Positions 2,260-43,960 of a stretch of 64,000 nucleotides of DNA are shown piece by piece. Origin of the DNA: Acutalibacteraceae bacterium (GTDB taxonomy: Bacteria; Bacillota; Clostridia; Oscillospirales; Acutalibacteraceae); assembly GCA_045538935.1 (NCBI GenBank), contig JAZQEI010000004.1, positions 4,479-68,478 of the forward strand, written 5' to 3'. The notes below the pieces were generated by a model. It was not told the origin of the DNA. It saw nothing but the letters and a program-made list of their open reading frames with translations, and searched no databases. A program made the position numbers and the translations under genes. Within the stretch, counting starts at the first letter, position 1, and every line of letters begins with the position of its first letter.

Positions 2260-3045
2260 ATGAGACGAAAAGTTATTTTGATTTCAATTGATGGAATGCG
2301 TCCTGACGGACTAAAGGCATGCGGCAACCGTTATGTTAATGAACTCGAAAAAATATGCAGTTATACATATAATGCTAGCTCTATGAATCCTACTGTAACA
2401 TTACCGTGCCATTTTTCCATGACTCATTCTGTGACTCCGCAACGACATGGTATACTAACAAACACATATGTTCCGCAAGTTAGACCTGTAGATGGTATTT
2501 TCGAAAAAATTAATGCTGCAGGCGGTATTTGCGCTATGTTTTATGGTTGGGAGCCGTTAAGGGATATTGTATCTGCAGGCGCTCTAAAATTTTCAACTTA
2601 CGTTAATGCTTATATGCAAGAAAGCGGTGATACCGTTTTAACCGATGAGGCCGACAAACTGATTAGAAAGCATAAACCCGATTTTGTTTTTCTGTATATG
2701 GTTGAGACCGATGAAAAAGGCGGCCATGACAACGGATGGATGAGTGATGAGTATTTGAAAAGGATTTATACGGCCATTGATAATACAAAGAGAATGATAG
2801 AAAAGTTTTCGAATGAATACTCGGTTATTATTATGGCAGATCACGGCGGACATGATCGTATGCACGGAACACAATTGCCTGAGGATACTACAATTCCGTT
2901 GTTCTTCCTTGGCCCTGAGTTTAAGCCTGGGAACAATATAAAGGACGCTTCACTTTTAGATATTGCTCCTACAATTGCAGATATTATGGGTGTTTCTAAA
3001 GATGCGAATTGGGAAGGCAAGTCTTTATTGGACAATACTTTTTAA
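2260..3045 (+). CDS. alkaline-phosphatase superfamily enzyme (nucleotide pyrophosphatase/phosphodiesterase type)
   Basis: RBS AAGGTGG. ISIDGMRPD metal site, NPTVTLPCH (Thr nucleophile context) and MADHGGHD are hallmarks of the type I phosphodiesterase/NPP family. Confidence 0.7.
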   Translation: MRRKVILISIDGMRPDGLKACGNRYVNELEKICSYTYNASSMNPTVTLPCHFSMTHSVTPQRHGILTNTYVPQVRPVDGIFEKINAAGGICAMFYGWEPLRDIVSAGALKFSTYVNAYMQESGDTVLTDEADKLIRKHKPDFVFLYMVETDEKGGHDNGWMSDEYLKRIYTAIDNTKRMIEKFSNEYSVIIMADHGGHDRMHGTQLPEDTTIPLFFLGPEFKPGNNIKDASLLDIAPTIADIMGVSKDANWEGKSLLDNTF

Positions 3046-3263
3046 TGGCGATTAAGCTTGAAAAATAAAATAAATTTTTCTTTAAAAGATTTCGGCAATT
3101 TTAATCTCGTTGTTGTGGGCGGAGGTTTCACTCGATGAGAAAAAATCCATACAAAAAACAGACCCTGTATCAGTAAAATTAAAGTTGTAACAGTTTCGAC
3201 ACAAATGTTTACTTTTTTTGCAGTTTGAGTATAACGCTTATATAAAACCTGCCTAATTTGGAA

Positions 3264-3401
3264 ATGTTTTTACGAGAAAATTGTTCGGCACTGTTCTTTT
3301 TGTATATTGCGCTTTACTATTACTTGTTTTTATTATTCAAAAAAAGAGTAAAGGAAAAAAGCACAACCGAACAAGAACAGCGCAGCTTTCAAAATGTTTA
3401 A
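3264..3401 (+). CDS. possible 45-aa small membrane protein (not in ORF track)
   Basis: The ATG 3264 ORF encodes MFLRENCSALFFLYIALYYYLFLLFKKRVKEK..., one hydrophobic helix plus a basic tail, ending 15 nt before a good terminator. The RBS is weak or absent, so this is speculative. Confidence 0.2.
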   Translation: MFLRENCSALFFLYIALYYYLFLLFKKRVKEKSTTEQEQRSFQNV

Positions 3402-3415
3402 ATAATTTAAAGTTA

Positions 3416-3446
3416 AAAACGAGTCGATTATTCGGCTCGTTTTTTG
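3416..3446 (+). terminator. rho-independent terminator inside a 470-bp non-coding gap
   Basis: ACGAGTCGA ttat TCGGCTCGT (9 bp with one G-U pair) followed by TTTTTT. Confidence 0.65.
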
Positions 3447-3514
3447 TTAAATACTCTTGAAAATAAAAACTTAAGGATGTATTATGTTATATGTTGTAAA
3501 AAGGAGGTATTTAA

Positions 3515-4621
3515 ATGGCTGTTGTAAGGTTTATAAAAAAGAATACCGTTTTATGTATTGCAGCATTAGCGGCTATTATAACCTGCTTTTTTGTTCCGCC
3601 CGATAAAGAATATTTTTCTTACCTAGATTACAAAACACTAGCATGCCTATTTTTAACACTCGCTGTTATTTGCGCACTTAGAAATATTAAGTTTTTTACT
3701 ATTGTAGCGCGAAAACTAGTGCTTTTATCGGGAAATTTAAGGAGCCTGTTTTTGATTTTAATATTTATAACCTTTATAGGCTCTATGATAATTGCAAACG
3801 ATATGGCGCTTATAACCTTTTTGCCTTTGGGATATTTTGCGTTAACTACAGTAAAAGAAGAAAGATATATGGCATATCTTTTTATATTACAAAATATTTC
3901 TGCAAATTTAGGAGGTATGCTAACCCCGTTTGGTAATCCGCAAAATTTATATTTATATTCGTTTTTTAATATACCAACAGGCGAATTTTGCTCAATTATG
4001 CTGCCGCCGTTTTTGCTGGCAGTAGCTATGCTTATATTGTTTTGCTTTTTTGTAAAACCAAGAAAATTTACTATAGACACATCTTTCCCGGAAAAATTAA
4101 ATATTAAAAAAACTTTGCTTTATATTGCTTTATTTTTACTTTCAATTTTAATAGTATTTCGTATAGTACCGTTTGTTTTAGGATTAATTATTGTACCTCT
4201 TGTGTTGTTTTTTGTAGATAAAGAATCATTACTTATGGTAGATTATGCATTGCTTGGTACATTCTTTTTCTTCTTTATTTTCGCGGGAAATCTTGCCAGA
4301 ATAGATGTAGTAAATAAGGTTTTATACGAGCTTTTGCAAAAAGACACCTTGCTTGTATCAACTCTTTCTTGTCAGGCAATAAGCAATGTGCCTACCGCAA
4401 TTTTGCTTTCTCGTTTTACTACCGATTATAAATCGTTGCTTTTGGGAGTTAACATAGGTGGAACGGGCACACTTATAGCATCTTTGGCAAGTCTTATTAC
4501 CTTTAGTGAATTCAAAATTTTGTATCCTGGGCATAATAAGAAGTATTTTTGGATGTTTACCATTATAAACCTTATATTCCTTGTTGTTATGGTGGTATGC
4601 TCAAAACAGTTCTTTGTGTGA
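3515..4621 (+). CDS. ArsB/NhaD-superfamily (CitMHS/SLC13-like) anion permease
   Basis: RBS AAAGGAGG. Polytopic 368-aa protein with NDMALITFLP and TPFGNPQNLYL motifs, characteristic of this permease superfamily. Confidence 0.65.
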   Translation: MAVVRFIKKNTVLCIAALAAIITCFFVPPDKEYFSYLDYKTLACLFLTLAVICALRNIKFFTIVARKLVLLSGNLRSLFLILIFITFIGSMIIANDMALITFLPLGYFALTTVKEERYMAYLFILQNISANLGGMLTPFGNPQNLYLYSFFNIPTGEFCSIMLPPFLLAVAMLILFCFFVKPRKFTIDTSFPEKLNIKKTLLYIALFLLSILIVFRIVPFVLGLIIVPLVLFFVDKESLLMVDYALLGTFFFFFIFAGNLARIDVVNKVLYELLQKDTLLVSTLSCQAISNVPTAILLSRFTTDYKSLLLGVNIGGTGTLIASLASLITFSEFKILYPGHNKKYFWMFTIINLIFLVVMVVCSKQFFV

Positions 4622-4637
4622 TAGAATAGGAGTTTTT

Positions 4638-5165
4638 ATGAAGATATTAGCCAACATTATAGGAATATTAGCGGTTGTGCTGTTTGTGCTAAGCTATCAA
4701 CAAAAAACGCGCCGATATATTGTAATAACGAACATTTTATCGCGCGTGTTTTATGTTACGCAGTATATGTTGCTCTTTGCTTTTAGTGGCGCTGCTATGG
4801 ATTTAACTGGATTGCTTGTGTCATTACTGGCTCACAAAAAAGATAAAAATTTTATATCAAAACACATAAAGCTGTGGGTTGTAGCATCGCTTTTATTTAT
4901 TGTGGCGGTTGGACTTTTGTTTTATAAAGATATTTTTAGCATTTTGCCCATTATCGCCGTAATTTTCGAGGTAGGCGCCTTGTGGCTAACTAAAGAAAAA
5001 CATATTAGAATAGTATCGTTGTTATCCACACCGTTTTGGCTTGTATATAATATTTTGTGCGGTGCATACGGCTCGGCGGTGGGAAGTGTACTTGCAATGG
5101 TATCTATTGTTTCGGCTTTTATCCGTTATGATATAAGAAGGGAAATAAAAGATGAAAAAATTTAA
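4638..5165 (+). CDS. YgjV-family inner membrane protein
   Basis: ATG 4638 lies 5 nt after AGGAG. About 175 aa with 5-6 TM helices. The N-terminus IIGILAVVLFVLSYQQKTRR resembles YgjV-type proteins. The track start at 4581 overlaps the upstream gene and was rejected. Confidence 0.6.
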   Translation: MKILANIIGILAVVLFVLSYQQKTRRYIVITNILSRVFYVTQYMLLFAFSGAAMDLTGLLVSLLAHKKDKNFISKHIKLWVVASLLFIVAVGLLFYKDIFSILPIIAVIFEVGALWLTKEKHIRIVSLLSTPFWLVYNILCGAYGSAVGSVLAMVSIVSAFIRYDIRREIKDEKI

Positions 5166-5958
5166 AGGAATTTTATTTTGCACCGACCTAGACGGAACGC
5201 TTTATAAAACCGATAAAACTATATCTGACGAAAACAAACAGGCTATAGAATATTTTAAAGAAAACGGCGGCTATTTTACATTTATTACCGGAAGACCGCC
5301 TGTTATTTCGGCCGATGTTTACAACTTTATAAAACCCAACGCACCAATTGGCTGTAACAACGGTGGTGCGGTGTATGATTTTGAGAATAAAAAATATATT
5401 TGGGCCAAAGAACTAGAGCCAAACGTCAGAATTCTTATAGATTTTATAGAAGAAAATATGACAAATATGGGCATACAAATAAACACGTATGACGATATAT
5501 TCTTTCACACCGATAACTCGGCTATGGAACGGTTTAGAAGGCTTACAAATACAGAGCGTATAATAAAAAGATATAATCAAATATCCGAGCCCGTTTTAAA
5601 GGTGATTTTTGCAAGTGAAGATGAGGCGCAAATTGAAAAACTGACCAAGCTTCTTGCATCTCACCCGTTAGCAGATAATTTTGATTTTATAAGAAGCGAA
5701 CGCATTTTATACGAAATTTTACCCAAAGGTATACACAAAGGCGTTGCACTTAAAAAAATAGCCGAGAGCCTAGGTGTTAAAAAGACCGTTGCGGTTGGCG
5801 ATTACGATAACGATATCGGTATGCTAAATGCGGCAGATATATCTTTTGCTGTAGAAAATGCGTCTTTAAGCGCCAAAGCGGCGGCAAATTATATAACCGT
5901 TTCTAACAATGACCACGCCATAGCCGCAATTATAAATAAGCTCAATAAAATCTTGTAA
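5152..5958 (+). CDS. Cof-type HAD-IIB family hydrolase (sugar phosphatase-like)
   Basis: LFCTDLDGTL (DxDGT nucleophile motif), FTFITGRP and a C-terminal GDYDNDIGML motif. Confidence 0.8.
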   Translation: MKKFKGILFCTDLDGTLYKTDKTISDENKQAIEYFKENGGYFTFITGRPPVISADVYNFIKPNAPIGCNNGGAVYDFENKKYIWAKELEPNVRILIDFIEENMTNMGIQINTYDDIFFHTDNSAMERFRRLTNTERIIKRYNQISEPVLKVIFASEDEAQIEKLTKLLASHPLADNFDFIRSERILYEILPKGIHKGVALKKIAESLGVKKTVAVGDYDNDIGMLNAADISFAVENASLSAKAAANYITVSNNDHAIAAIINKLNKIL

Positions 5959-40971: not shown

Positions 40972-40999
40972 TTTCAAAGTTAGCTAAATAAACAAAATA

Positions 41000-41030
41000 A
41001 AAACGGAGTGTCGAAAGACACTCCGTTTTT
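41000..41030 (+). terminator. rho-independent terminator
   Basis: AAAAACGGAGTGTC gaaa GACACTCCGTTTTT. Confidence 0.85.
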
Positions 41031-41107: not shown

Positions 41108-41136
41108 TTGAAAAAAACAAAAAAGTATACTACAAT
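41108..41136 (+). promoter_or_regulatory. candidate promoter for the orphan gene
   Basis: TTGAAA (41108-41113), 17-nt spacer, TACAAT (41131-41136). Confidence 0.4.
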
Positions 41137-41168
41137 AAATTAAAAAAGAAAAATTATAGAGTTAAACC

Positions 41169-41246
41169 GAGAACACAGGGGACGGTTCTGTGTGTTCCGG
41201 AACTTGGGATATATCGGAGAACACAGAGGACGGTTCTGTGTGTTCT
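41169..41246 (+). repeat. two direct copies of a ~30-bp hairpin-forming repeat (upstream pair)
   Basis: CGAGAACACAGGGGACGGTTCTGTGTGTTC (41169-41198) and GGAGAACACAGAGGACGGTTCTGTGTGTTC (41217-41246). Each can fold via GAACACA / TGTGTTC. Confidence 0.8.
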
Positions 41247-41281
41247 GCCAGCATATTAATAAAAATCAATGAGGAGTGACC

Positions 41282-41992
41282 ATGATGAATTCAAAAATTG
41301 AGAAATTACTTTTTGGAGTACTTTGGTATATTAATTTAATAGGCCTTAGATTATTAATACCGATACAAAAGATTGATTATAAAATTACAGCGCAGTTTCT
41401 TATAATAAGTTTTGCGCTTACATCGCTTATGTTTTTTATATATTCAAAGATACGAAACAATAAAATCATGAAAACAGTAACGATATATAATAAAAACAAT
41501 GAGTTTGATGTATGTCTTTCTTACTTAGATAAAAAAATTACAAAATACAAAAAATTGGATTGGCTACAATATGAAAGAATTTTAGTAATGGCTATGAAAG
41601 GTGATGTTTTAGGATTCAAGGCGGCTACAGAACAATTAAAAATAAGACCTCACAAAGCCGACGGCCGTTTAGAAATTATACAGAAATTTGATTTTTTGTA
41701 TCAGATATTATTTGATAATTCAACCGAACAAATTACCTATAACAAAACAAATTTAGTTATAGATAATTTGATAAATTTACTTATCAATAAAAACGATATG
41801 GAATCGGATGAGGTTATTTCTGCGGCATTATTGATTTATAGTTCCGAACAATTGCTTTACAAAAGTATTGCGGCGACAATTTTATCTAAAGAGTATTTAG
41901 AGAAAGATATCAATACATCTAATTTGTATTTAAGTAAAGCTAAAGAGTTGGCACCATCTCAAGATATAATTCATTGGGTTAATAACCAGTAA
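41282..41992 (+). CDS. hypothetical membrane protein (2 N-terminal TM helices plus a helical domain), A+T-rich orphan
   Basis: ATG 41282 lies 5 nt after GAGGAG. I recognise no family. The composition is visibly more A+T-rich than the flanking PFOR and GH13 genes. Confidence 0.6.
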   Translation: MMNSKIEKLLFGVLWYINLIGLRLLIPIQKIDYKITAQFLIISFALTSLMFFIYSKIRNNKIMKTVTIYNKNNEFDVCLSYLDKKITKYKKLDWLQYERILVMAMKGDVLGFKAATEQLKIRPHKADGRLEIIQKFDFLYQILFDNSTEQITYNKTNLVIDNLINLLINKNDMESDEVISAALLIYSSEQLLYKSIAATILSKEYLEKDINTSNLYLSKAKELAPSQDIIHWVNNQ

Positions 41993-42008
41993 CTGTAACA
42001 TAAGACAG

Positions 42009-42062
42009 TAAGGCAGGGGACGGTTCTCTGTCTCATAAGGCAGGGGACGGTTCTGTGTGTTC
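42009..42062 (+). repeat. tandem 27-bp copies of the same repeat core (downstream pair)
   Basis: TAAGGCAGGGGACGGTTCTCTGTCTCA (42009-42035) and TAAGGCAGGGGACGGTTCTGTGTGTTC (42036-42062). These share the core CAGGGGACGGTTCTGTGTGTTC with the upstream pair. Confidence 0.8.
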
Positions 42063-42072
42063 TGAACAAAAC

Positions 42073-42106
42073 AAAAAGCTTATCGGCTAACACCGATAAG
42101 CTTTTT
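42073..42106. terminator. bidirectional terminator
   Basis: AAAAAGCTTATCGG ctaaca CCGATAAGCTTTTT. It lies between the orphan gene and the convergent GH13 gene. Confidence 0.85.
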
Positions 42107-43960
42107 TTATTTTTGCGATAGTACCGTTATTCCCATACTGTCTACTAAAACCTTATTATCGTTTGGCTCATTGCCCATAAGGGTGGTAGGGATGGTGAAT
42201 GAATTTGGTAAGGGAAGCGTTACCGCAAAATCGTTGCGGTTTACGGCAATAAATACTGTGTTGGTTTCGTTTTGCCTTATAAAGTTTACAACACCAAAGT
42301 CACTTGGTAGCGGTATAAATTTACCACCGTTAAAGGCAGAGTTAGAAGTTCTTATTTTACCGAGTTCTTTATAAAACTCTAAAAGCTCGGTGTTTTCATT
42401 GCCCCAAGGGTAAGTAGCGCGGCAGAACGGGTCGGCGCCGCCAGTAACGCCGGCTTCATCACCGTAAAATAGTGACGGCACACCGGGTATGGTGTACTGT
42501 AAAGTGGCGGCAAGCTTAAGGCGTTTTACACCTAAAGCGTATTGCTCGGCGGTTAAATTAAAGTCGGCTTGCTCGGCTCTTGCTTTGGGGATATAATCTG
42601 CACCAAGCACGGTTAAAATACGCGCGGTATCGTGGGTGCCTATGTGATTCATAAGCATATTTACGCTATGCGGTGGGTAATTTTCTAAAATATCGAGTAC
42701 CAAATCTATAAAATCGCGCGAGTTACCGCCCTTAACAAAGTTTATTATGCCGTTTGCAAAGGGGTAATTCATAACAGAATCTAACTGTTTGCCGAGTAAA
42801 AATCTGCGGCGGTATGAATAACTTATTTTGTTTGTGGCGTCCTCCCAAACCTCACCAAGCAAATATGCGTTGGGTTTTTCGGTTTTTATGGCGGTTTTAA
42901 TTTTATCTAAAAATTCATCGGGTAGTTCATCGGCAACGTCAAGCCGCCAACCGTCTGCGCCAAGGCGAAGCCACTTTTTTAAAATGCCGTTTTCACCGGT
43001 TATATATTCGGTGAATTTTTCATCGTTTTCTATAACCTCGGGCAAAGTGGGTACACCCCACCAACTGTGGTAGTCGTTTGGCCAGTTGTTAAATTTATAC
43101 CAACTGTAAAACTCAGAGTCTTTAGAGTTATATGCGCCGTTTCCACTATAGCGCGAATATTTGTTAAAGTAAATACTGTCATCACCCGTATGCGAGAAAA
43201 CGCCGTCTAAAACAATATGCATACCACGTTTTTTAGCGGCTTTACATAAATTAACAAAATCTTGCTCTGTACCGAGTAAAGAATCTATTTTTGTATAGTC
43301 GGCGGTGTTGTAGCGGTGGTTAGAGTGAGCCTCGAATATTGGGTTTAGGTAAATGCAGTTTACACCCAAACTTTTTATATAATCGAGTTTTTGCTCTATA
43401 CCTTTTAAATCGCCACCGTAGTAGTCGTTACAAAGCGAACATACCCCATTATTTTGGCGGTGTTCGGGGATTTTTGACCAGTCCTCACACAAATATCGGT
43501 CGGTTGGTACACCCTTTTTCTCACTACCTGAGTTAAAAAAGCGGTCGGGGAAAATTTGGTATATTATGCCGCCACCTAGCCACTCTGGCTGGTCAGCAGT
43601 TTCTTCATATACAGTTATTTGCCATGCGCCGCCATCAGAAGATACATAACCTAAAGAATGGTCAAATTTTGTTACAAAAAACTCACCGTGCTGTGAAGTA
43701 TACCTAAATTTATACCAATAAAGCCCTACATCAAGAGAAATTTCGCAAGAATAAAACCTATAATCCTCCAGCCATTCACCCGGCTCTAATTTAATTTCTT
43801 TTACAGAATGGTCAATATCTGACTCTAAAATTAAAAACGCATCAAAGCATAAAGCATCTTTATGCAACAATAGCCGTAGCCGCAGATTTTCACCTGCAGC
43901 GACGGCTGTTTGTTTTGATTTATATAAAGAATTTTTAGAATCAAACGGGAAGTATTGCAT
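42107..43960 (-). CDS. GH13-family alpha-glucosidase/amylase (neopullulanase/cyclomaltodextrinase-like), intracellular
   Basis: Conserved GH13 regions: IYLNPIF..HRY, GWRLDVADE, LLGEVW and NHIGTHD. There is an N-terminal accessory domain and no signal peptide. Confidence 0.85.
   Translation of the reverse strand: MQYFPFDSKNSLYKSKQTAVAAGENLRLRLLLHKDALCFDAFLILESDIDHSVKEIKLEPGEWLEDYRFYSCEISLDVGLYWYKFRYTSQHGEFFVTKFDHSLGYVSSDGGAWQITVYEETADQPEWLGGGIIYQIFPDRFFNSGSEKKGVPTDRYLCEDWSKIPEHRQNNGVCSLCNDYYGGDLKGIEQKLDYIKSLGVNCIYLNPIFEAHSNHRYNTADYTKIDSLLGTEQDFVNLCKAAKKRGMHIVLDGVFSHTGDDSIYFNKYSRYSGNGAYNSKDSEFYSWYKFNNWPNDYHSWWGVPTLPEVIENDEKFTEYITGENGILKKWLRLGADGWRLDVADELPDEFLDKIKTAIKTEKPNAYLLGEVWEDATNKISYSYRRRFLLGKQLDSVMNYPFANGIINFVKGGNSRDFIDLVLDILENYPPHSVNMLMNHIGTHDTARILTVLGADYIPKARAEQADFNLTAEQYALGVKRLKLAATLQYTIPGVPSLFYGDEAGVTGGADPFCRATYPWGNENTELLEFYKELGKIRTSNSAFNGGKFIPLPSDFGVVNFIRQNETNTVFIAVNRNDFAVTLPLPNSFTIPTTLMGNEPNDNKVLVDSMGITVLSQK

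Follow-up and report, generated by a model that had tools for sequence, protein, structure and literature searches.

A REP-type hairpin family, very probably tied to a RAYT/TIRYT-type transposase, marks an orphan-gene islet in an Acutalibacteraceae genome

We analyzed a stretch of 64,000 nucleotides (the window) from an Acutalibacteraceae bacterium (GenBank assembly GCA_045538935.1, contig JAZQEI010000004.1, positions 4,479 to 68,478, forward strand). Four copies of a short repeat surround an orphan gene, P0001, which lies between a PFOR gene and a GH13 gene. These repeats very probably belong to a family of repetitive extragenic palindromes (REPs) tied to a REP-associated tyrosine transposase (RAYT) of the TIRYT type, a Y1 transposase. 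The enzyme is missing from the window genome, and the copies mark an islet of orphan genes. A first-pass annotation, made from the sequence alone, had listed a REP-like or MITE-like (miniature inverted-repeat transposable element) family among its readings. The neighbouring genes, the profile matches and the co-occurrence across genomes support the REP family with its link to a RAYT/TIRYT-type Y1 transposase. The assembly measures 1.8 Mb and is 98% complete; it is called G000 here, and the window corresponds to its contig C4.

Four REP-type hairpins in the window

The core of the repeat is the 22-mer CAGGGGACGGTTCTGTGTGTTC. It is exact at 41176-41197 and 42041-42062 and has one mismatch at 41224-41245, and 100 shuffles give no match. 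A diverged fourth copy at 42014-42035 was read in the sequence, and repeat finding clusters it with the other three (family D1). By sequence reading, shuffle control and repeat clustering, the four copies lie where the first-pass annotation had placed them, all on the plus strand.

The left arm reported for both upstream copies, GAGAACACA, is present. Each of these copies forms a single-stranded DNA hairpin of -8.6 kcal/mol (z -2.6 and -3.9). Copy 1 (41169-41197, plus) is intact, with the stem GAACACA/TGTGTTC and the loop GGGGACGGTTCT at 41178-41189. Likewise, copy 2 (41217-41245, plus) is an intact hairpin. Its loop, GAGGACGGTTCT at 41226-41237, shows one substitution.

Downstream of the orphan gene, sequence reading and repeat finding recover the 27-bp tandem unit beginning TAAGGCAGG. 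The copy structure described at first holds for the upstream left arms and is refined here for the downstream pair. Copy 3 (42003-42035, plus) has a displaced left arm of its own, AGACAG at 42003-42008. An insert, TAAGGC, separates this arm from the loop (42016-42027), which is followed by the right arm CTGTCT (42028-42033). Copy 3 is the orthologue of the REP that follows a 92%-identical homologue of the orphan gene at another locus (L192). Copy 4 (42036-42062, plus) is 5'-truncated and has no left arm, only the loop at 42043-42054 and the right arm GTGTGTTC. By single-stranded DNA folding, it gives no fold alone. The sister species carries it at the same place, and it forms the right edge of a variable islet.

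The window repeats are REP-type hairpins, two intact, one distorted and one 5'-truncated. More precisely, copies 1 and 2 fold on a single strand as the short palindromes of REPs do, and copies 3 and 4 represent damaged forms.

A conserved loop within a co-varying stem

We aligned about 300 instances of the element. The block seen as the loop of copy 1 is invariant, with ...C-A-R before it and N-Y-T-G... after it. The stems are specific to each lineage, yet complementary, for example GGAAGCAG/CCTGCTTCC, GTGTCAAG/CTTGACAC and GGGACAG/GTGTCCC. Pairing at all eight stem positions (8/8) is seen in 32 of 249 distinct instances with the exact loop, against 2.4 expected with re-partnered arms. When each locus contributes a single instance (125 rows), doubly changed cells number 211, compared with 94±12 in shuffles. 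The covariation score of these 125 loci is 0.431 versus 0.196. None of the 500 shuffles reaches it, and slid registers stay at 0.19 or less. G-U pairs are common on the hairpin-forming strand.

Complementary arms that co-vary around an invariant loop mean that the element is a one-strand hairpin. It consists of a variable stem of 7-9 bp, a conserved loop of 11-12 nt and the closing pairs C-A-R/Y-T-G. Given these covarying stems and the linkage to RAYT genes, several candidates were dropped: sites of the CsrA, SinR, LexA or SpoIIID type, a mini-array of clustered regularly interspaced short palindromic repeats (CRISPR), the initiation of mutagenic homing (IMH) site of a diversity-generating retroelement (DGR), and the hix sites of invertases. 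In a scan against Rfam with E up to 10, the best E was 0.068, far under the gathering scores, and no match fell on the hairpins. A literature search for the loop string returned unrelated primer matches only.

The family across genomes

The window genome holds exactly six copies, four in the window and two on contig C22, and all six are intergenic. The C22 copies form a convergent pair at 236929-236958 (plus) and 237124-237152 (minus). An abundant generic REP is ruled out in this genome, where the count stays at six even with two loop mismatches allowed. With six copies at two loci, the high dispersed copy number of REPs is not seen here; other genomes have 20-156 copies. The first-pass annotation had considered that the repeat might be a generic REP whose link to the gene is coincidental. 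Elsewhere, the element is indeed abundant and generic. In the window genome, four of the six copies stand at this gene, and homologues of the gene are again flanked by REPs.

The 13-mer core AGGGGACGGTTCT is clustered in 11 of 61 relatives, with at most one match per genome for the reversed-pattern control. In a wider set, RGGGGACGGTTCT occurs in 96 of 301 Clostridia genomes with up to 156 copies (controls, at most 2). A scan of one genome per species (596 Gb, about 2,000 chance matches expected) gave at least 120 loci. They are mostly from Bacillota among the matches listed, which include Oscillospiraceae, Acutalibacteraceae, Lachnospiraceae, Syntrophomonas, Pelotomaculum, Desulfosporosinus, Bacillus-like genera and Sporomusa. 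Despite the chance rate the signal is real, given that the loci concentrate in one phylum and that paired matches are frequent. The element is not restricted to Bacillota, since a metagenome-assembled genome (MAG) of Omnitrophota (L078) has the 12-nt loop seven times within 8 kb of a contig, and an Atribacterota MAG (L105) has the loop on the flanks of a RAYT. A phage origin is unsupported: IMG/VR gave 76 matches with few multi-copy contigs. By a rough estimate of the size of that collection, this number is at or below chance.

Only 28% of the copies lie within long open reading frames (ORFs), against 84% of random positions. Most stand 3' of a gene and share its strand (sense), 70 versus 18. 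Many copies are convergent doublets with a spacer of 10-35 nt, and one genome (G017) has a REPIN-like doublet unit of about 125 bp with at least seven occurrences. Other copies form tandem arrays with truncated 5' partial copies. Dense arrays of full and 5'-partial REPs were observed at L036 (150-260 and 3230-3430), L124 (7395-7500) and L146 (3070-3170). The 5'-partial copies consist of the left arm and 1-9 loop bases, in a stutter-like manner. We rejected a nuclease cleavage point derived from these truncations. The loop prefixes end at 1, 3, 5, 6, 7 and 9 nt, and without a dominant end site their appearance is slippage-like.

At C22:237112-237165 (L005 7113-7166), the 29-bp minus REP has the same 14-bp sequence, GGGGGTGATTTCGT, on each side. 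These flanks resemble a target-site duplication. Transposition of the IS200/IS605 type makes no such duplications. Beside this second REP locus, paralogous zinc-ribbon membrane proteins are encoded (L005 6203-6880 and 8117-9529). The 470-aa zinc-ribbon protein is an internal tandem duplication of a 225-aa module.

A RAYT gene accompanies the hairpin

We clustered all ORFs up to 2.5 kb from the motif at about 130 loci. A single cluster was locus-specific, a protein of about 250 aa found at five loci; the remaining families were housekeeping. This protein matches Pfam Y1_Tnp PF01797 (E 1e-13 to 1e-18) and NCBIfam NF047646, 'REP-associated tyrosine transposase'. In the alignment (A1), which comes from other genomes only, the HxH and Y-x3-N-P motifs are invariant (H63, H65, Y122, N126, P127). 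The C-terminus gives a weak match to a helix-turn-helix.

RAYT-like genes with inverted repeats on their flanks were named TIRYT or TIRtrons by Di Nocera et al. 2013 (PMC3733652). TIRYTs correspond to TnpA_Y1 subclass 2.1, with a C-terminal helix-turn-helix, and to RAYT group 1 of Bertels et al. (Quentin et al. 2018, PMC6006769; Bertels et al. 2017, 10.1101/119735). The partner gene is a RAYT of this type (TIRYT, TnpA_Y1 subclass 2.1, RAYT group 1).

The hairpin brackets the RAYT gene, with a plus copy upstream and a minus copy downstream, at all five of the first loci and at three of six further loci (L184, L187, L189). By coordinates, inverted hairpins around the RAYT are also present in genomes G169 and G215. 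The distance from the end of the upstream REP loop to the RAYT start codon is 52-56 nt in L169, L184, L187, L188 and L189, which belong to different genera. This fixed spacing suggests that the upstream REP is part of the RAYT gene's own control or end structure.

Repeat and gene also co-occur. Among the 61 relatives, the RAYT is found in G017, G035 and G059 (pseudogenes) only, and all of them bear the repeat (Fisher p = 0.001). Among 300 Clostridia genomes, scored for at least four cores and for a RAYT at E ≤ 1e-60, 26 have both, 18 the repeat only, 24 the RAYT only and 232 neither (odds ratio 14, p = 1.2e-12, with kinship between genomes ignored). The pairing of repeat and RAYT is strong, not one-to-one.

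The sole Y1_Tnp gene of the window genome is a classical IS200-type TnpA at C5:16934-17290 (L193 1423-1857; 135 bits). It has an in-frame TAA and is probably a pseudogene. We also looked for a RAYT remnant in this genome by tblastn at E up to 10, and none was found at either REP locus. Since the genome has no RAYT, its six copies are relics or came with imported DNA. It means that they are immobile by themselves, either left behind without an enzyme or arrived in foreign DNA.

A proposed mechanism and the points against it

We propose the following course for the family. In other Clostridia and Bacillota, the hairpin has risen to tens of copies or to over 100, most of them intergenic. The RAYT probably recognizes the folded hairpin on one DNA strand, by analogy with TnpA_REP of E. 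coli and the TnpA of IS200/IS605. It would then cut and rejoin the strand and so spread the hairpin. The window genome and its congener lack the enzyme, and the six copies of the window genome are relics. In the window, the copies mark both ends of the hypervariable islet between PFOR and GH13. The orphan gene may have come with its REPs, or by recombination at REPs.

Several observations weigh against a RAYT-driven REP family as the origin of these repeats. The window genome, at 98% completeness, gave no RAYT by tblastn or profile search. There is no sign that the window copies ever transposed here, and entry with foreign DNA is possible. All four copies have the same strand, whereas RAYT genes carry inverted copies on their flanks. 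In the wider set, 12 of the 44 repeat-rich Clostridia have no detectable RAYT, and 24 of the 50 RAYT-bearing genomes have fewer than four exact cores, about 18 of them none. The truncated partial copies lack a single breakpoint that would mark a cleavage site. The sequence itself also departs from known families. The GTAG head of classical REPs is absent, and the conserved block is the loop. The CGTC head is absent at the palindrome end; CGTC is seen only as the complement of GACG in the loop. Compared with the motif GGGGWSAS given in the text of PMC3733652, the loop start GGGGACGG agrees at seven of eight positions, with G for the expected A. Finally, subclass 2.1 genes were reported to have no REP-like hairpins beside them (Quentin et al. 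2018, PMC6006769).

A variable islet between PFOR and GH13

The first-pass annotation proposed to compare the PFOR-GH13 junction in related strains. We made this comparison, and the interval differs in the sister species (G001), which has five unrelated genes there. The two genomes are 91% identical in PFOR and up to window position 41139, just past the -10 box. Homology resumes, at about 80%, at 42046, inside the loop of copy 4. In G001 and on a scaffold of a near-identical strain (L271), the five genes of the interval have 33-38% GC. The first encodes a 189-aa ORFan (an orphan ORF product), with a degenerate reversed REP over its ribosome-binding site (RBS) and two degenerate REPs past its stop. 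It is followed by a duplicated PFOR 3' end with its terminator, a 485-aa protein and three lipoprotein paralogues. The same 5'-truncated REP stands beside the GH13 terminator in both species. Conserved flanks, differing genes and a common truncated REP define a variable islet, one edge of which is a REP.

The PFOR duplicate comprises the last ~35 bp and the terminator. It immediately follows the first cassette's REPs, at L182 (G001:C6) 2716-2815 and at L271 1547-1646. As read from the sequence, this duplicated end has the signature of a single-crossover (Campbell-type) integration of circular DNA. Another insertion in the sister species, of 2.8 kb at L039 (G001:C57) 2586-5388 relative to G000 C22:219187-219228, contains two strict ORFans and three REPs. 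It has a 42-bp direct repeat on its flanks, a duplication of the upstream gene's 3' end. Because of this insertion and the duplicated PFOR end, ordinary integration by short homology is pointed to as one probable entry route.

At L039 2640-2800, a run of short hairpins with differing stems, each followed by ATATCAC, was also observed. A similar run is present at G000 C21:22145-22276. It is a second, unrelated repeat type common to both species (82% over 132 nt).

The orphan gene has also been found elsewhere. Its homologue P0003 is 92% identical to P0001 with a replaced N-terminus. The stop codon of P0003 is followed by the orthologue of copy 3 and, at a greater distance, by an inverted copy. 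The other homologue, P0002, shares 69% identity and is surrounded by unrelated genes (LemA, sigma-70, GDSL lipase). A REP fragment immediately precedes the ATG of P0002, and REPs come after its stop. Some 500 bp further downstream, at L190 5894-6033, a plus REP, the first 17 RAYT codons (MPRQARKKSKRGIYHI) and a minus REP follow each other. This segment is a deleted REPtron. Since the homologues of P0001 in other places are REP-adjacent, the gene and the REPs travel together. The association of the orphan gene with REPs is more than coincidence. A scan of metagenome contigs gave no further contexts of the orphan gene. In the sister species, two further genes associated with REPs are strict ORFans that match only themselves.

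The annotation had suggested that the repeats might be recombination sites that delimit a cassette. The cassette part stands, to the extent that the sister species has unrelated genes in place of 41140-42045 and that the right junction falls in the last REP. The recombination part finds no recombinase and no integron-type core. In its full form, the hairpins would be attC-like sites at which some recombinase swaps single-gene cassettes between PFOR and GH13. The unrelated low-GC ORFans between conserved flanks in two species of one genus, the junction within the REP loop, the REP-bracketed first cassette of the sister species with the duplicate PFOR 3' end and terminator after it, and the REPs that adjoin each orphan homologue in other contexts are all in line with it. 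Nevertheless, no integrase or recombinase ORF is present in the window between 36 and 47 kb or at the sister locus. The attC cores RYYYAAC/GTTRRRY are absent, and neither the arms GAGAACA/TGTGTTC nor the loop GGTTCTG fit them. Elsewhere, the hairpins are mostly scattered singles or inverted doublets and not cassette arrays. Ordinary Campbell-type integration accounts for the duplicated PFOR end without any REP. We consider dedicated recombination sites highly improbable.

A broader idea is that REPs in small-genome gut Clostridia are joints of a system for ORFan cassette exchange at hot spots like PFOR-GH13. The Y1 enzyme could 'peel and paste' with cargo, as in IS200/IS605, or recombination could take place in the invariant 12-nt loop. 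Cassette exchange would explain the REP-bracketed unrelated ORFans at one locus in two species, the right junction inside a REP loop, and the orphan homologue beside a decayed RAYT. We regard it as speculative and rather unlikely.

The orphan gene and its local signals

P0001 occupies 41282-41992 on the plus strand (237 codons, 236 aa), with the RBS GAGGAG at 41271-41276. As described at first, it is a single A+T-rich gene between the repeats, with 27-29% GC against 42-47% for PFOR and GH13 and 37.8% for the genome. Its protein has two N-terminal hydrophobic helices and an all-helical domain. The lack of a recognized family was also borne out, with no match in Pfam, NCBIfam or PADLOC and only chance-level matches in PHROGs. 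The best PHROGs match, an entry of unknown function with E = 0.017, is not credible. Two homologues only were found among 5.8 billion proteins. The structure prediction proposed for this protein was uninformative: AlphaFold gives an all-helical but unreliable model (pLDDT 49, pTM 0.34). From these predictions, P0001 is describable solely as a putative small membrane-anchored helical protein.

A terminator scan places the intrinsic terminator of PFOR, a bidirectional hairpin, at 40999-41030 (plus), within the left flank kept in the sister species. The predicted promoter at 41108-41136 (plus) was recovered as a consensus match only, TTGAAA-17-TACAAT, with 10 of 12 positions in the consensus scan. 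It is common to the sister species, where it stands ahead of a different orphan gene. The orphan gene and GH13 (42107-43960, minus), which converge, have one bidirectional intrinsic terminator in common, at 42073-42106. The predicted promoter and the RBS enclose both intact REPs; the two remaining copies stand past the stop codon and ahead of this terminator.

Folding of the untranslated regions (UTRs), a check suggested by the annotation, predicts strong folds on both sides. The predicted 5' UTR (41143-41281) gives -42.7 kcal/mol (z -4.4), and the predicted 3' region, terminator included, gives -51.4 kcal/mol (z -7.6). If the shared promoter drives transcription, the REPs could possibly be strong hairpins in the 5' and 3' UTRs of the orphan mRNA. 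REPs of E. coli stabilize upstream mRNA. By analogy, the REPs at the orphan gene may stabilize its mRNA.

An RNA role might even be the primary one. The hairpins would then be stem-loops of the UTRs whose loop binds a protein; selection on the RNA would maintain them, and they would stabilize or regulate the orphan mRNA. The position of both pairs and the strong UTR folds agree with this explanation. Likewise, so do the excess of sense copies 3' of genes across genomes and the frequent G-U pairs on the hairpin strand. However, transposition of single-stranded DNA at replication forks also predicts a strand bias. The distribution of the element tracks a transposase-like gene and no gene class, and the copy number goes from 0 to 156 among related genomes. 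Frequent forms are inverted doublets, tandem partials and copies that run antisense to the closest gene, and Rfam has no match. We judge a primary RNA function very unlikely.

Comparison with known systems

A REP family with a RAYT partner can be set beside several described systems. The element fits the known TIRYT-type REP/RAYT kind. In both, a Y1/HUH protein of about 250 aa with Y-x3-N-P and a C-terminal helix-turn-helix is bracketed by inverted repeats with a GGGG-W-S motif, to judge from the motif as printed in PMC3733652. That text gives the terminal inverted repeats (TIRs) of TIRYT genes the common motif GGGGWSAS and describes them as moderately abundant repeat families; the loop start fits GGGG-W-S and the last S. 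Both kinds form families of low to moderate copy number, often as dimers or clusters, with a patchy taxonomic spread that includes Clostridia. The differences are also clear. In our case, the repeat on the flanks forms a hairpin whose stems co-vary and whose loop contains GGGGAC, the motif differs from the GGGGWSAS of that text, the 12-nt loop is invariant over many Bacillota families, and the window genome has the repeats without the gene. The hairpin nature, the covariation and the phylum-wide invariant loop are new.

Classical REPs, with their bacterial interspersed mosaic elements (BIMEs) and RAYT (REPtrons), and REPINs are known from E. coli and Pseudomonas (PMC2817692, PMC3333891, PMC3116915). 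They share with our element the short extragenic palindromes, the inverted doublets with a short spacer (as in the ~125-bp unit of G017), the inverted copies that flank the RAYT, and repeat populations that outlive the loss of the RAYT. Here, in contrast, there is no GTAG head, and the loop is conserved instead of the stem foot. There are usually fewer copies, the phylum is a Gram-positive one, and the RAYT is of another subclass with an extra helix-turn-helix domain.

The IS200/IS605 elements and the non-autonomous palindrome-associated transposable elements (PATEs) likewise use a Y1 HUH transposase that acts on one-strand hairpins. The hairpins of their left and right ends have the same strand, as do the four copies around the orphan gene. 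However, the bracket described here has no transposase, the comparison of truncated copies gave no cleavage or target tetranucleotide, and the bracketed unit has no second identical copy in its own genome.

The attC cassettes of integrons are also single promoter-proximal ORFans, each followed by a hairpin site folded on one strand, in a variable array between conserved flanks. Here, IntI and the R''/R' cores are absent, the loop is conserved and not the stem base, and other species have this hairpin dispersed over the whole genome.

Biological significance

REP/RAYT systems have received much study in Proteobacteria, with few descriptions from Gram-positives. The RAYTs detected by Nunvar 2010 (PMC2817692) were all gammaproteobacterial, and neither the text of that paper nor that of Ton-Hoang 2012 (PMC3333891) mentions Firmicutes, Clostridia or Gram-positives. 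The hairpin is a precise candidate recognition element for an uncharacterized HUH enzyme subclass that was earlier reported without REP-like hairpins. For annotation, the motif accounts for many 'mystery' inverted and tandem repeats in MAGs of gut and rumen Clostridia, assembly breaks included.

For the window itself, no new mechanism is needed, and the repeats flag a recombination-prone ORFan islet. At the orphan gene, the REPs may be a vehicle, a recombination joint or a passenger. That REPs may help to move ORFan genes is the sole potentially new point for the window. If the cassette exchange were true, REPs would be a vehicle for gene flux, beyond selfish repeats.

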